Assembly: GCA_964473825.1 (NCBI GenBank)
Contig: CAYYQL010000004.1
Span: 85,127 to 149,126 of the forward strand
Length of the DNA: 64,000 bases
Direction of reading: 5' to 3'
Source: an uncultured archaeon
GTDB taxonomy: Archaea > Asgardarchaeota > Thorarchaeia > Thorarchaeales > Thorarchaeaceae
The position numbers and the translations under genes were made by a program. Shown piece after piece: positions 14,092 to 47,960 of the stretch; position 1 is the first letter of the stretch, and each line of letters begins with the position of its first letter. The notes beneath the pieces were generated by a model, which worked only from the letters and a program-made list of their open reading frames with translations, did no database searches and was not told the DNA's origin.

Positions 14092-14871
14092 TTGAGATAC
14101 GCTCGTGGGATATTCATCGGATCTCTGTTACCTGGGATTATCTTGGCCGGAGCTACGTTCATCAAACTGGCCGGGTATGGAGTGACCAATCAAGTGGCAC
14201 TGGAAACACTGTGGAGTATCTTTCAAGTATGGATTGTTATTTCCATTGCTGTGCTTGTTATTCCTCTTGCCGTGGCCTATGCCAAGTATCGAGAGATGTT
14301 TCGGGAGCTACTGCTCTTCGAAATTGGGGGTCTAGCCTTTTTTGCGCCGCTATGGTTTGCGCTTTTTACTGACCTTTCAGGTGACTCTTGGGTCACAGTC
14401 CTTCGTAATGGAATTGATGATGGTCTTGTATTTCTTGCTAGTGATGGTTCTCTGATTGGTGTTGACATTGGTCCTGTAATTCTGATTCCCTCCCTTGTCG
14501 TGTCAATGGTTGTCGGTGCCATACTATTTCGTCCCTCATTCATCGAACAAAACTCAGGTTCTACAGGCTCAGCAAGAACTCCGAAGGAACCCGCCAAACC
14601 GGTATCAGCGGCATCTCCAGCAACCGAGATGCCTGAAGTCGGGCGACCTGTGCCTGATGAGAACACCATAGCTGAGCTAAGAAATCTTCTGCAGACTCTA
14701 TCGGTGGCCCCTACAGCTATCGAGGCGATTATCGACTCGGATATAAAGACCGTCACCGATTTGGTCGCAACTAGTGCGAAACAAATCGCGGACATCACCG
14801 GGATGAATATTCAAGTCGCTCGTGACTTACAAGTCGCGATTCAGAAATATGTGTGGTACGGAGGAATCTAA
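14092..14871 (+). CDS. four-TM membrane protein with C-terminal HhH-like domain
   Basis: 4 hydrophobic segments, Pro-rich linker, IKTVTDLVATSAKQIADITGM tail. Confidence 0.65.
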   Translation: MRYARGIFIGSLLPGIILAGATFIKLAGYGVTNQVALETLWSIFQVWIVISIAVLVIPLAVAYAKYREMFRELLLFEIGGLAFFAPLWFALFTDLSGDSWVTVLRNGIDDGLVFLASDGSLIGVDIGPVILIPSLVVSMVVGAILFRPSFIEQNSGSTGSARTPKEPAKPVSAASPATEMPEVGRPVPDENTIAELRNLLQTLSVAPTAIEAIIDSDIKTVTDLVATSAKQIADITGMNIQVARDLQVAIQKYVWYGGI

Positions 14872-43977: not shown

Positions 43978-44112
43978 GTGGAACTTGTATACCGAATGCC
44001 CCATACAGGCCAGTTCTTGGCGTAATACAAGAGAGCAATGAGCAGCTTTAAAAGTACACCTCAGGTTTTTGGCGCTGACCCCAGCACAACAATCTAGGAG
44101 AGTCGCTTCCAA

Positions 44113-45114
44113 ATGAGCAAGAAGAAGTGGGGAAAATCAACAGCAAAGACTGACCGAATAATTCGTGATGCAGTGCCGAAGAAAGAAACACTTGAAGAGA
44201 TAGATGGTTTTCTGTCTAATGCCACCTCGGTCACGGCCTTTGACCTCGCAAGGCGTTTCAATATCCGAATGAGTATTGCCAAGGATATTCTGAGCAAGAA
44301 ACAAGAGAACGGCGAACTGGTACCCTATTTGCGCGAGAGTGGCTTTGCTGTCTATACACGGCCTGCAGAGCTCGAGAAGAGAGAAACAGAACGCCCTATC
44401 ATGATTTCTGAGGTTCTTGAGGAAGTCGCCTCTTCTGTCCCTGAGCAACCTGTGATTGATGACGAGATGGATCTTGCTCTTGCTGCAGCAGGGGGCGATG
44501 TGAAACCCTCCAAGATTGCTCGTAAGCGACGAGAAGCTGGCAAGAAGAAAGAGCGTGAGCGAGACCGCAGACCTGAAGTTGTTGTTGAGCCCCTAGAGGA
44601 AGAACCCGAAGTCGCTCCAGCTGAGGAGCCGAAGAAGGAGCCAAAGAAGGAGCCTAAGAAGGAGCCGAAGAAGGAACCAAAGAAGGAGCCAAAGAAGGAG
44701 CCTAAGAAGGTTGAACCTGCAAAACCTGCTAAAGCCCCTGCAGCGGACATCCCCTTGGAAGAACTACCAGGAGTTGGAGGTAAGACGCGAGAGGGCCTAG
44801 TCAAGGCAGGCTACAAATCTGTGAGTGCTGTAGCCGATGCAGAGCCGTCAAAGATTGCAGACGACGTGGATGGGGTGGGTGAAGCCACCGCTAAGAAGAT
44901 GATTGGTGCAGCCAAGGATATCATGAGGGACTATGATCTTGAAGAGCTCCCCGGTGTTGGTGAGAAGACCCGTAAGAGCTTTCGTGATGCCGGTTACAAT
45001 TCAATAAGCAAGATTGCTGATGCGGACGCCGCTGACCTAGCCACCACAGTTGATGGTGTTGGCGAGGCGACTGCAAAGAAGATTATCTCTGCCGCGAAGA
45101 AGATGTCTAGATAA
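44113..45114 (+). CDS. rps25e: ribosomal protein eS25 fused to two HhH-type domains
   Basis: KKKWGK...VTAFDLARRFNIRMSIAK..L...G.L......VYTR eS25 pattern; 2x LEELPGVG..T...AGY...VDGVGEATAKK. Confidence 0.8.
   Translation: MSKKKWGKSTAKTDRIIRDAVPKKETLEEIDGFLSNATSVTAFDLARRFNIRMSIAKDILSKKQENGELVPYLRESGFAVYTRPAELEKRETERPIMISEVLEEVASSVPEQPVIDDEMDLALAAAGGDVKPSKIARKRREAGKKKERERDRRPEVVVEPLEEEPEVAPAEEPKKEPKKEPKKEPKKEPKKEPKKEPKKVEPAKPAKAPAADIPLEELPGVGGKTREGLVKAGYKSVSAVADAEPSKIADDVDGVGEATAKKMIGAAKDIMRDYDLEELPGVGEKTRKSFRDAGYNSISKIADADAADLATTVDGVGEATAKKIISAAKKMSR
44626..44709 (+). repeat. 7 x 12-bp coding tandem repeat (EPKK)
   Basis: GARCCNAAGAAG x7, varying only at synonymous sites. Confidence 0.95.
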
Positions 45115-45261: not shown

Positions 45262-45894
45262 CTATGCAATCTCTGCCAGCTGTTTGTCGATATTTTCGAG
45301 CTTGCTATCCAGCTCTGCTTCCTTTGATTTGTACTCATCCTCAGGTATGTACCCTCTCATGTAGTCAAAGCGAAGGTCTGTGAGTTCTGCCTTGAGCCTG
45401 TCCTTCTTCTGTAGAAGGACTTCTCTCTCGTCACTGACCTCTTCTGTAACAGCTTCTGTCTGGGCAACTACTGCTTCCTCAGTGGATTCCACTTCTGCTG
45501 GCTGCTCTGTTTTGGTCGGCGGTGATTCGATGGTTGCAGGTTCGGGGGCCTGAGTTACCGGCGCTGGTTGTTCTACCTTCGGCTCCTCTACTGCTTCCGG
45601 TTTCGGTTCAGGCTTAGCCGGTTCTGGTTCGGCTGGAGGCTTCTCGAGCGGCTCCGTTTCAGCAGTCTTGCTCTCGGGCTTCACGCTGGCCATCGCCTCC
45701 ATATTCTTGCGGAGCATCTCGATCTGGTCCGCAATCTGATTCATTGAGTCATTAATCGTCCTATTCAGCTGTTCTTTCATTTTGGCAAAATTCATGGCCA
45801 AGTCATCAGCTAGTTTCTTTGTTTCGTCAACCTTACTGGCAAAGCCTTCGATTTCTTTGAGCTTTTCAAGCATAGAACTTATGTCGAGATCCAT
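45262..45894 (-). CDS. coiled-coil protein with Pro/Glu linker and CdvA/SHOCT-like C-terminus
   Basis: LRFDYMRGYIPEDEY motif; EPAKPEPKPE linker. Confidence 0.65.
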   Translation of the reverse strand: MDLDISSMLEKLKEIEGFASKVDETKKLADDLAMNFAKMKEQLNRTINDSMNQIADQIEMLRKNMEAMASVKPESKTAETEPLEKPPAEPEPAKPEPKPEAVEEPKVEQPAPVTQAPEPATIESPPTKTEQPAEVESTEEAVVAQTEAVTEEVSDEREVLLQKKDRLKAELTDLRFDYMRGYIPEDEYKSKEAELDSKLENIDKQLAEIA

Positions 45895-46003: not shown

Positions 46004-46855
46004 CTAGGATGCCTTCGATTCGTCTTTTCCTTCGAGGATGGCCTTCCGGATGATCTGAATGAGTCTATCGCGGTATGAGATATCGATGGCGACCAACTCG
46101 AAAGTTGTGACTCCGAGTATCTGTCCTACTCTTTCAGGGGTTAGGGCGGTGGGAAGGTCCTGCTTGTTTGCGATACCTATGACTTTGGCATTGGGCACCT
46201 CTTCCTTAACTAGCGAAACAAGCTTTTTGCTTCTCAGGACGTTCTCCAGAGTACTGTCAGTCACAATGATAACAACCTGGGCATTGGCAATCATCTTAGC
46301 CCACAAAATGCTGAATCTGGACTGTCCTGCCAGATCCCACAGTACAATGTTGGCATTCTGTACTTCTTCGGGGAGTTTCTTGATGCTGACACCTATGGTT
46401 GGATCGTGAATCAGGGGCAGTGTTTCACCACGGAGTAAATGCAGAGTAGTCGTCTTCCCCACTCCTGCATATCCTAGTATTGCCACCTTTACCATTGTGA
46501 CCGCAATCTCGTCCACCTTGGCTTCGAAGCCATCAAGTGGTTGGTTCGCCTCGGCCAGTCTGGCGAAATCTTTCACGAAGATGTCAACAACCTGACCCAT
46601 CCGTTCTTCGATCTGGGCAGGATCGTCCGCTTTGTCTGCGATGAATACAAAGGTGAAGGGGTCGTGTACTGTGTAGAATATTCTGGCCAATGCCAGACCC
46701 ATGGACTCCGTCTTCTGTTCTAGGTTGACTGAAGAGAGAAACTCGGCAAGACTGACGACAAATTCTATGAGCGCTGATTTTGAATCAGTAGTGGCATACT
46801 CTTTGGAGTAGACCATGTTGCTCTCCTGACCAAGTATGTAAATGCCCCTAATCAT
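46004..46855 (-). CDS. longin domain fused to Arf-like small GTPase
   Basis: N-terminal IRGIYIL...FVFIAD longin; GYAGVGKT, PTIG, WDLAGQ, ANKQDLP; start 46855 overlaps the upstream stop. Confidence 0.9.
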   Translation of the reverse strand: MIRGIYILGQESNMVYSKEYATTDSKSALIEFVVSLAEFLSSVNLEQKTESMGLALARIFYTVHDPFTFVFIADKADDPAQIEERMGQVVDIFVKDFARLAEANQPLDGFEAKVDEIAVTMVKVAILGYAGVGKTTTLHLLRGETLPLIHDPTIGVSIKKLPEEVQNANIVLWDLAGQSRFSILWAKMIANAQVVIIVTDSTLENVLRSKKLVSLVKEEVPNAKVIGIANKQDLPTALTPERVGQILGVTTFELVAIDISYRDRLIQIIRKAILEGKDESKAS

Positions 46856-47960
46856 CCTGTTCGCTCCATGTATCCGTGAGAAGCTGCAAGTATCTCTTTG
46901 CAGCATATCTGTCTAATTTCTTTTCGGAAACCCGTCTTGCAATGGTTGAGAGTACATACTCCGGCATAAATGTCTTCATTGTCGGGTTTGTAACTAATGC
47001 CCACATCTTTTCATCCTCAAAGTGAACGGAAATCCTTTGTGACTCAAGAGTTCCCAGTACATCTCTCACGATGCTTTTAGGCAGAGCCGTTTCTTCCGAA
47101 ATCATATCAACGTTCTTAGGTCTATCTCTGAGGGACTGTAGCACTATATAGTTAAAACTGTCATATATCACTTCGAAGACGCGTTCCCGATCTTCCATCA
47201 GTGGCGAGTCTGGCTGATCTATGGGTATGGTGGGATTATATCCCTTGGCAGGGGGCTTCGGAGAGAAGAACTCCTTTACATATTCCTCATATCTCTTGGC
47301 AATGTGTGGCATGTAGGCCTTCGCATTCAGAAGCGATTCTACAGGGGGCGCCCGATATCCAAAGACATCTCTAACCAGGAAGACCATCTCCGCCTTTGTT
47401 TCGATGATTTCAACGTGGGCGACACCCGAGTCTAGTAGAGGTTTGGCCACTCCTTTGATGTTGATATTCTCTGTCTGGACCTGGTTAGAAAGCCACAGGT
47501 TCAAAGCTCTTGCAGAGTCGACACCCTGTTCCTGCAGTCTTTCCAGTAGGAGAGCTGAGGAAGGCGTGAAGTATATCTTGGCCAGTAGCTGCTCCTGTGT
47601 CCGTTCGGGCAGGGTTCTCTCATGCCTGATGATTTCCATCAGGTCAACCTCATCAGGAGATACTTGCATGAGCGCCAGCATGAGTCTGCTCATCCCCTCG
47701 AATAGCTCTTGATTTGGGCCAAAGTCTGTCTGCTCGCGTAGGACATAGCCTACCAGCCATCCCGGATAGTCGCTGCTCTTGAATGACACGTATCTTCTGT
47801 CATCGAGGTTGTGGAACTTGATCTCCTCATTGTCCTCTTCGTGAGCCACATCGAGGAGATTCAGGGTTTCTTCATTGATGCGAAAGGCAGACGGTTGACT
47901 CTTCCTCACCAAAAACCCCTGATAATCGTCGTACTGGACTATGAAGACCGCTTCCGGCAT
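46848..47960 (-). CDS. uDENN/NPRL2-like longin protein with winged-helix C-terminal region
   Basis: AVFIVQYDDYQGFLV...P beta-hairpin start; ISEETALPKSIVRDVLGTLE HTH. Confidence 0.6.
   Translation of the reverse strand: MPEAVFIVQYDDYQGFLVRKSQPSAFRINEETLNLLDVAHEEDNEEIKFHNLDDRRYVSFKSSDYPGWLVGYVLREQTDFGPNQELFEGMSRLMLALMQVSPDEVDLMEIIRHERTLPERTQEQLLAKIYFTPSSALLLERLQEQGVDSARALNLWLSNQVQTENINIKGVAKPLLDSGVAHVEIIETKAEMVFLVRDVFGYRAPPVESLLNAKAYMPHIAKRYEEYVKEFFSPKPPAKGYNPTIPIDQPDSPLMEDRERVFEVIYDSFNYIVLQSLRDRPKNVDMISEETALPKSIVRDVLGTLESQRISVHFEDEKMWALVTNPTMKTFMPEYVLSTIARRVSEKKLDRYAAKRYLQLLTDTWSEQDD

Follow-up and report, generated by a model that had tools for sequence, protein, structure and literature searches.

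In this study we describe a gene of an Asgard archaeon that very likely encodes the ribosomal protein eS25 extended by a conserved middle module, a disordered spacer and two C-terminal HhH domains. We propose, with a probability of about 0.5 for the explanation as a whole, that this extension may tether nucleic acids flexibly to the 30S head, irrespective of their sequence, with DNA as the likeliest ligand. Asgard archaea are the closest archaeal relatives of eukaryotes, and eS25 lies on the upper side of the 30S head, close to the E site. To our knowledge, folded domains are rarely gained by ribosomal proteins. In our search of the literature, neither HhH nor the middle module turned up on eS25, and among solved structures none was found with HhH on this protein. 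In this sense, HhH on eS25 and the orphan module are new, whereas a tethered HhH on a ribosomal protein is already known from eL32. The sole eS25 of this Asgard lineage carries a private module together with HhH domains of the type found on DNA enzymes, and the large subunit and RNA polymerase share HhH.

Identity and architecture of the extended eS25

Coordinates are given as positions in the window, that is, the whole 64,000-nt stretch of contig CAYYQL010000004.1 that was analysed (85,127 to 149,126, forward strand). The host genome has 3.27 Mb and is 95.7% complete, and the closest public homologues of the protein are labelled Candidatus Thorarchaeota. The gene is one intact ORF with an ATG at 44113, a stop at 45112-45114 and 0 internal stops, and Pfam models match both its ribosomal and its HhH part, as expected from the original prediction of an eS25 joined through a linker to two HhH domains (Table 1). 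The Shine-Dalgarno-like sequence listed there recurs, as AGGAG(A/T)GT, at an equal upstream distance in 30 orthologues.

Table 1. Features of the extended eS25 gene and its upstream region (positions in the window)
Feature	Position	Strand	Basis or remark
TTTAAAA, possible archaeal TATA box, ~59 nt 5' of start codon	44048..44054	+	read from sequence
AGGAGAG, Shine-Dalgarno-like	44096..44102	+	10 nt 5' of ATG (12 nt from AGGAG core)
Extended eS25 gene, complete	44113..45114	+	single ORF, 333 aa plus stop
eS25 core, aa 1-85, winged helix	44113..44367	+	PF03297, AF2, Foldseek
Middle module, aa 86-165, family-specific	44368..44607	+	orthologue conservation, AF2, profile searches
Pro/Lys/Glu linker, aa 166-211, disordered	44608..44745	+	pLDDT below 50
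12-nt tandem repeat, 7.2 copies, encodes (EPKK)7	44624..44710	+	Tandem Repeats Finder
HhH domain a, aa 212-271, HHH_5, two GVG hairpins	44746..44925	+	profile match, pLDDT 87-95
HhH domain b, aa 273-333, HHH_5, two GVG hairpins	44929..45111	+	profile match, pLDDT 89-96

The ribosomal identity of the N-terminal ~85 aa is supported by both profile and fold. The Ribosomal_S25 model (PF03297) matches aa 3-83 with 35.8 bits in a Pfam search of the protein (cut-off 28.8), the match starting at model position 21, and the gene reaches 40.7 bits in a whole-genome scan with the same model. In an AlphaFold2 (AF2) model built on 22 orthologues, the winged helix (aa 21-90) has a pLDDT of 83-92. Foldseek aligned about 64 residues of the core with eS25 chains of solved ribosomes, among them those of yeast, human and Pyrobaculum calidifontis (9e71_BW), with a target TM of 0.53-0.82 (most 0.64-0.82) and an rmsd of about 2.6 A. 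The E-values for these chains (5e-3 to 4e-2) were obtained with the whole multidomain model as query; because the model is multidomain, no whole-model match appeared at E<=1e-3 and the matches are read per domain only. On these grounds we hold the identity as eS25 and the domain architecture to be very likely. The KKKW start had been called eukaryote-like, but it is not specifically so, as other Asgard eS25 begin MSKKKWTKE or carry KKKRWGK.

We found that this 333-aa gene is the sole eS25 above cut-off in the whole-genome scan, and there is one eS25 gene per genome across 60 relatives. The gene is the organism's eS25 orthologue and not an extra paralogue. Two candidates for a second copy were discarded: the runner-up on C33 (16.9 bits) is a 103-aa MarR-like winged-helix ORF, and the match on C17 is a GTPase. 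Compared with canonical eS25 (Saccharolobus solfataricus, Pyrobaculum calidifontis, eukaryotic RPS25), the winged-helix core is alike by HMM and fold, and so are the KKKW motif before the core and the single-copy state of the gene. The Thorarchaeota protein differs in being about three times as long, because an 80-aa middle module, a spacer and two HhH domains have been added, and in having almost no N-terminal tail, since it begins MSKKKW. In S. solfataricus an N-terminal Gly-Gly peptide of eS25 touches uS13 near the P site, and the two N-terminal glycines have been reported as conserved in archaeal eS25 (PMC11698992); the protein described here lacks them.

Between the core and the HhH domains, the original prediction placed a charged linker with seven EPKK repeats. 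The repeats were recovered, the seven units being visible in the translation and encoded by a 12-nt repeat (90% matches, score 139; Tandem Repeats Finder), but the region is not a plain linker, as an 80-aa conserved module lies within it. The true linker is a Pro-rich EPKK polyampholyte with a net charge of +6 and a pLDDT below 50 (disordered, aa 157-206 in the AF2 model), and in close relatives the eS25 lengths of 333, 343, 348 and 409 aa go together with differing linker repeats. The module itself comprises a pair of short acidic helices, then a basic helix (VKPSK-ARKRRE...), and closes with the conserved, invariant-rich stretch RPEVVVEPLE, with a net charge of -10 in the acidic half and +9 in the basic helix; AF2 predicts three helices at aa 98-150 (pLDDT 62-78). 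Mean column identity across 23 orthologues is 61%, which indicates that the module is under strong constraint.

The module was present in 31 of 32 genomes of the family and in none of 118 other Asgard genomes. Its profile, run against 1.84 billion representative proteins, gave 18 matches at E<=1e-10, all eS25-type; in the full-length matches the module starts at about residue 86-111, much as in the protein described here, and the remaining matches resemble fragments. A feature search of the ESM Atlas with the module returned no usable match. Its occurrence elsewhere as a separate gene or domain can be set aside, given the count of 0/118 in non-family Asgard genomes and protein-database matches that are eS25-type only. 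Judged by these comparisons, aa 86-165 are an orphan conserved extension of eS25 confined to one Thorarchaeota family. We also considered whether the module co-evolves with a family-wide 16S expansion segment, which was not supported: no insertion of at least 4 nt was found that both occurs in all six 16S genes taken from the family and is missing from the four outgroups.

The two HhH domains are well defined. HHH_5 (PF14520) matches two stretches with 89.1 bits in total (cut-off 27), in line with the two domains read earlier from the translation. The GVG hairpins lie at aa 219-221, 254-256, 280-282 and 315-317, with the motif intact in 4/4, and AF2 folds aa 212-333 into two compact five-helix HhH domains with a pLDDT of 87-96. 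In isolation the domains carry a slight negative charge (net -3 and -1, pI about 5), and by this composition domains a and b are unlike a classical DNA clamp. Foldseek with the HhH part retrieved NusA (8y5l, the best match), the RadA/Rad51 NTD, Hjm and Topo V. The best sequence matches to the HhH units are the RadA/Rad51 N-terminal (HhH)2 and the (HhH)2 arrays of topoisomerase V (TIGR02236; PDB 1pzn, 1t4g, 8df7); the RadA model TIGR02236 hits two stretches of the HhH part with 75.6 bits, far under its cut-off of 361 and over model positions 1-56 only. The tandem arrangement also resembles that of topoisomerase V. Unlike RadA and Topo V, the eS25 protein has neither a recombinase nor a topoisomerase core, and the array hangs on a ribosomal protein.

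Distribution across the family and tail types

In the GTDB family, eS25 frames are long in every one of the 16 genera (212-414 aa where complete; 60 genomes), and eS25 frames in 24 other Asgard families measure 85-157 aa. In the sister family, represented by a single genome, eS25 has 182 aa and a Lys-rich tail, without the middle module. Same-genus assemblies display an identical architecture: G006 (86% identity over aa 1-333), G022, P0002 (93%) and P0003 (92%). These assemblies are independent, so that the conservation of the fusion in the lineage, on which the original prediction depended, is borne out.

The tail that follows the module varies between genera. It ends in two HhH domains in genera g1 and g12 and in one HhH domain in g2, g7, g8, g9, g15 and g16, so that 8 genera in all have HhH on eS25, always in frame at the C-terminus. 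No HhH is present in g4, g5, g6 and g11, where the tail has 37-49% lysine in KKxxPKK-type H1-like repeats, nor in g10, where it is Lys/Pro/Ala-rich with about 22% Lys. Overall, the tail is basic or HhH in 16/16 genera. Since several genera have no HhH on eS25, the family's ribosome can do without it. On the eS25 tree, computed from the first 168 residues, the HhH state has changed at least four times, and the deepest branches include HhH-bearing genera, the tree being rooted at its midpoint only. This pattern suggests that HhH may be ancestral on eS25 with later losses, rather than captured repeatedly from eL32.

HhH domains on eL32 and other proteins

In the same genome, the N-terminus of eL32 (P0028, C3:128305-129270) holds two HhH domains, joined to the core by a Lys/Pro linker. 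Across the family, 11 genera have 1-4 HhH units on eL32, and in g5, g10, g13 and g14 its extension is Lys-rich and lacks HhH; in the 9 eS25-HhH genomes examined, eL32-HhH was always present (9/9). Within this genome the eS25 and eL32 cassettes share 63-66% protein identity and are collinear and gap-free over 368 nt, with 69% identity and no exact match beyond 14 nt. Genus g1 contributes six eS25 and four eL32 units to a tree of 42 HhH units, in which all the g1 units fall in one clade (98% SH-aLRT); unit 2 of eS25 groups with unit 2 of eL32 (96% SH-aLRT), and unit 1 of eS25 has unit 1 of eL32 as its nearest neighbour. The clade, the unit pairing and the collinear cassettes at 69% identity therefore indicate that a two-unit cassette was copied between eS25 and eL32 long ago. 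Recent gene conversion is rejected by the same nucleotide identity and short exact match, and by this measure the two cassettes are not being homogenised now.

The alignment of P0028 with the haloarchaeal eL32 of solved 50S/70S particles begins at the second HhH unit of P0028, spans the linker and extends into the eL32 core (Haloarcula marismortui L32e 1jj2_X and 1s72_Y; 9l94_Q, 234 aa). With HhH-bearing eL32 already in solved ribosomes, HhH-appended ribosomal proteins are thus a known, little-discussed kind. Haloarchaeal eL32 (PRK12766) and P0028 share with eS25-HhH a ribosomal core, a flexible Lys/Pro-rich linker and one or more HHH_5 domains; they differ in the ribosomal protein, in the subunit and in the terminus that bears the cassette, which is the opposite one. 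The NCBIfam model PRK12766 touches the HhH part of eS25 only, with 46.7 bits against a cut-off of 239. By analogy, eS25-HhH would resemble the PRK12766 class in its working, but it is not a member, its core being eS25 and not eL32.

HHH_5 has 28 matches in this genome, and its carriers include Top6A (four units), Rpo6, RadA, PolX, a HEAT-repeat protein, an LRR protein and a membrane protein. For Rpo6 of Thorarchaeota, an HhH-like N-terminus was noted in a 2026 paper (PMC13257274). We found Rpo6-HhH family-wide and without co-variation with eS25-HhH, and therefore the phyletic pattern lends an RNA-polymerase partner no specific support. When the eS25 HhH pair was modelled in a complex with the HhH of Rpo6, the outcome (score 0.07, mark 0.32) spoke neither for nor against binding.

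A putative nucleic-acid tether and competing explanations

In the proposed mechanism, the eS25 core would be the anchor on the 30S head, the position it has in S. solfataricus and eukaryotes, and the basic helix of the middle module would probably add contacts there with rRNA or protein. The Pro-rich spacer would form an extended, length-variable arm, giving the HhH domains a reach of roughly 10-15 nm from the ribosome, and the tandem domains would hold duplex nucleic acid by its phosphate backbone, whatever the sequence, chromosomal DNA being the most likely ligand. With a hook on each subunit, through eS25 and eL32, ribosomes would be kept near the nucleoid and the transcribing RNA polymerase with its Rpo6-HhH. 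In sister genera, a histone-H1-like Lys-rich tail would do the same job electrostatically.

Since the organism's only eS25 has a flexible tail ending in HhH domains shared with eL32, its ribosomes probably carry movable hooks for DNA or RNA. That such a tether links the ribosome to DNA, mRNA or RNA polymerase, as first suggested from the translation, is plausible. The interchange of HhH with polycationic tails suggests that a polyanion is a likelier ligand than a specific protein, and we consider that the tail probably is a nucleic-acid tether. DNA is favoured as the ligand because the same HhH occurs on DNA enzymes and the sequence is RadA-NTD-like; this assignment is tentative and its chances are somewhat short of even.

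HhH folds are also able to bind RNA or proteins, and both possibilities deserve consideration. If the HhH domains and the Lys-rich tails of relatives bound RNA and not DNA, they might target structured mRNA leaders close to the E site and the exit side, the ribosome's own rRNA, or the rRNA of a neighbouring ribosome, with a role in polysome packing or hibernation. No polyanion is nearer to a ribosome-bound tether, or more abundant, than RNA, and Lys-rich tails bind any polyanion; eukaryotic eS25, for its part, recruits structured RNAs (IRESs). We nevertheless regard an RNA ligand as rather unlikely, as the closest relatives of the domains, the RadA/Rad51 NTD and the Topo V repeats, come from DNA enzymes, the same module sits on DNA enzymes of this very genome, and the comparison of family and outgroup 16S genes revealed no family-wide expansion that could be a target in cis. 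A protein ligand is suggested by another resemblance. NusA AR1/AR2 and the RNA polymerase alpha-CTD are protein-binding HhH domains in bacterial transcription-translation coupling; they also stand on a flexible linker, and their tandem (HhH)2 lies likewise at the C-terminus. The eS25 HhH pair might similarly be an adaptor between proteins, with RNA polymerase (via the Rpo6 HhH), a helicase or a chaperone as partner. Its best Foldseek match, 8y5l, is indeed NusA in the E. coli transcription-translation coupling complex, and Rpo6 carries HhH throughout the family. However, the NusA C-terminal repeat model (TIGR01954) matches weakly, at 37.2 bits and so below its cut-off of 48.15, which sets the pair apart from NusA; the Rpo6 and eS25 HhH domains do not co-vary; and the low-complexity Lys-rich tails of sister genera are hard to square with a specific protein interface. 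Altogether, an adaptor role seems distinctly improbable.

The extension could also have accumulated in a nearly neutral way, without a specific ligand and with effects, at most, on solubility, charge balance or condensates; Thorarchaeota ribosomal proteins would then be generally prone to gathering low-complexity tails and promiscuous domains. The wide variation of tail length and composition between genera, and even within a genus, would fit such a history, as would the genera that lack HhH on eS25 and the promiscuity of HHH_5, whose 28 matches in the genome include LRR, HEAT-repeat and membrane proteins. Against this, conservation of the HhH domains is good, the hairpins being intact and the pLDDT above 90, every one of the 16 genera retains a basic or HhH tail, the middle module is strongly constrained (61% column identity), and the cassette has persisted since an old duplication (69% nt identity), so that we hold accretion to be quite unlikely. 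Finally, the junction falls within a 12-nt tandem repeat, a kind of sequence that is easily mis-assembled, and the congener G022 has Ns in the linker; separate eS25 and HhH genes might then have been joined wrongly through a collapsed repeat. This is hardly credible, given that the frame is continuous in independent assemblies of at least 8 genera with different linkers, that the HhH part has no start codon or SD of its own preceding it, and that one- and two-HhH forms are always found in frame at the C-terminus.

If the putative tethers bind DNA, these archaea would keep ribosomes on the nucleoid, which would bear on the coupling, and the later uncoupling, of transcription and translation on the way toward eukaryotes. 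In a further step, the tethered HhH domains of eS25, eL32 and Rpo6 together might anchor translation to the chromosome beside transcription. Such DNA-scaffolded coupling, which we judge unlikely from the present comparisons, would differ in mechanism from the NusG/NusA bridges of bacteria. Should the tethers bind RNA instead, they would provide an archaeal counterpart to the recruitment of structured mRNA by eukaryotic eS25.

In either case, the family offers a natural series (two HhH domains, one HhH domain, H1-like tail) of potential ribosome-attached nucleic-acid binders. Histone-H1-like extensions occur on Drosophila RpL22 and RpL23a (PMC3074143), and the Lys-rich tails of sister genera on eS25 and eL32 are of the same kind. 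Unlike the H1-like polycation of Drosophila, the eS25 described here has a balanced EPKK polyampholyte as linker and a tail that ends in folded HhH domains.

HhH domains on other proteins of the genome

Judged from its sequence matches, HHH_5 (the Pfam HhH domain) is unusually promiscuous in the genome that contains the window, where we found 28 matches. Several of the proteins fused to it are listed in the table below, and its position varies among them, being N-terminal on the HEAT-repeat protein and C-terminal on the polytopic membrane protein. The RNA polymerase subunit Rpo6/RpoK is also among these proteins. Long Rpo6 proteins with HhH occur in those of the Thorarchaeaceae genera (g1-g16) that have a scanned Rpo6 ORF, namely g1, g2, g4, g5, g7, g8, g9 and g11, and Rpo6 frames measure 218-251 aa in 15 of the 16 genera of the family. 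The distribution of HhH on Rpo6 differs from that on the ribosomal proteins: g4 and g11 have it on Rpo6, yet their eS25 is devoid of it, and in g5 it is present on Rpo6, yet on neither eS25 nor eL32.

Features of the window and its genome (G000; L numbers are retrieved loci)
Feature	Location	Strand	Description
Top6A/Spo11 homologue	L006:952-3192 (G000 C38)		747-aa frame; four tandem HhH domains ahead, Lys-rich linkers
HEAT-repeat, polytopic membrane and leucine-rich-repeat proteins	L009, L011, L023 (G000 C20, C25, C10)		HHH_5 fusions
Rpo6/RpoK	L149:1066-1731 = G000 C1:281507-282172		222 aa; N-terminal HHH_5 and basic linker
Weak HHH_5 match	window 14710-14847	+	22 bits, under cut-off; within 262-aa frame
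Arf-family small GTPase gene	window 46004-46906	-	adjoins the 210-aa-protein gene
210-aa-protein gene	window 45262-45894	-	adjoins the Arf-family gene

Start codon and neighbours of eS25

The start position of eS25 lies 9-12 nt 3' of a conserved AGGAG(A/T)GTAAT motif and immediately 5' of a conserved SRKKW. This position is occupied by ATC or ATT in about 20 of 30 orthologues of the family (L027-L053; window 44096-44115), and by ATG, TTG or GTG in the window gene and a few others. The presence of ATC or ATT at a conserved start position suggests that eS25 may be translated from non-canonical AUC/AUU initiation codons in most of the family. Near eS25, the Arf-family small GTPase has an N-terminal extension of about 135 aa with no Pfam match, and the 210-aa protein beside it is Pro/Glu-rich and coiled-coil-like, with a sub-threshold GvpG match.

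eL32 tails and 16S rRNA genes in other Asgard genomes

Most other Asgard eL32 proteins have long acidic C-terminal tails. In the eL32 of G122, a genome from a different Asgard family (L104), a C-terminal acidic linker is followed by a degenerate HhH-like segment; HhH therefore appears to have been joined to different ends of eL32 in different lineages. Regarding the rRNA, 16S genes spanning 2278 nt (L182, G022), 2411 nt (L179, G009) and 2426 nt (L177, G071), compared with a 1478-position model, indicate that some Asgard SSU genes contain large insertions, which may be introns. In G001, G002, G003 and G017, the head (3' major) domain of the 16S rRNA also has sporadic insertions of 18-30 nt (in alignment columns).
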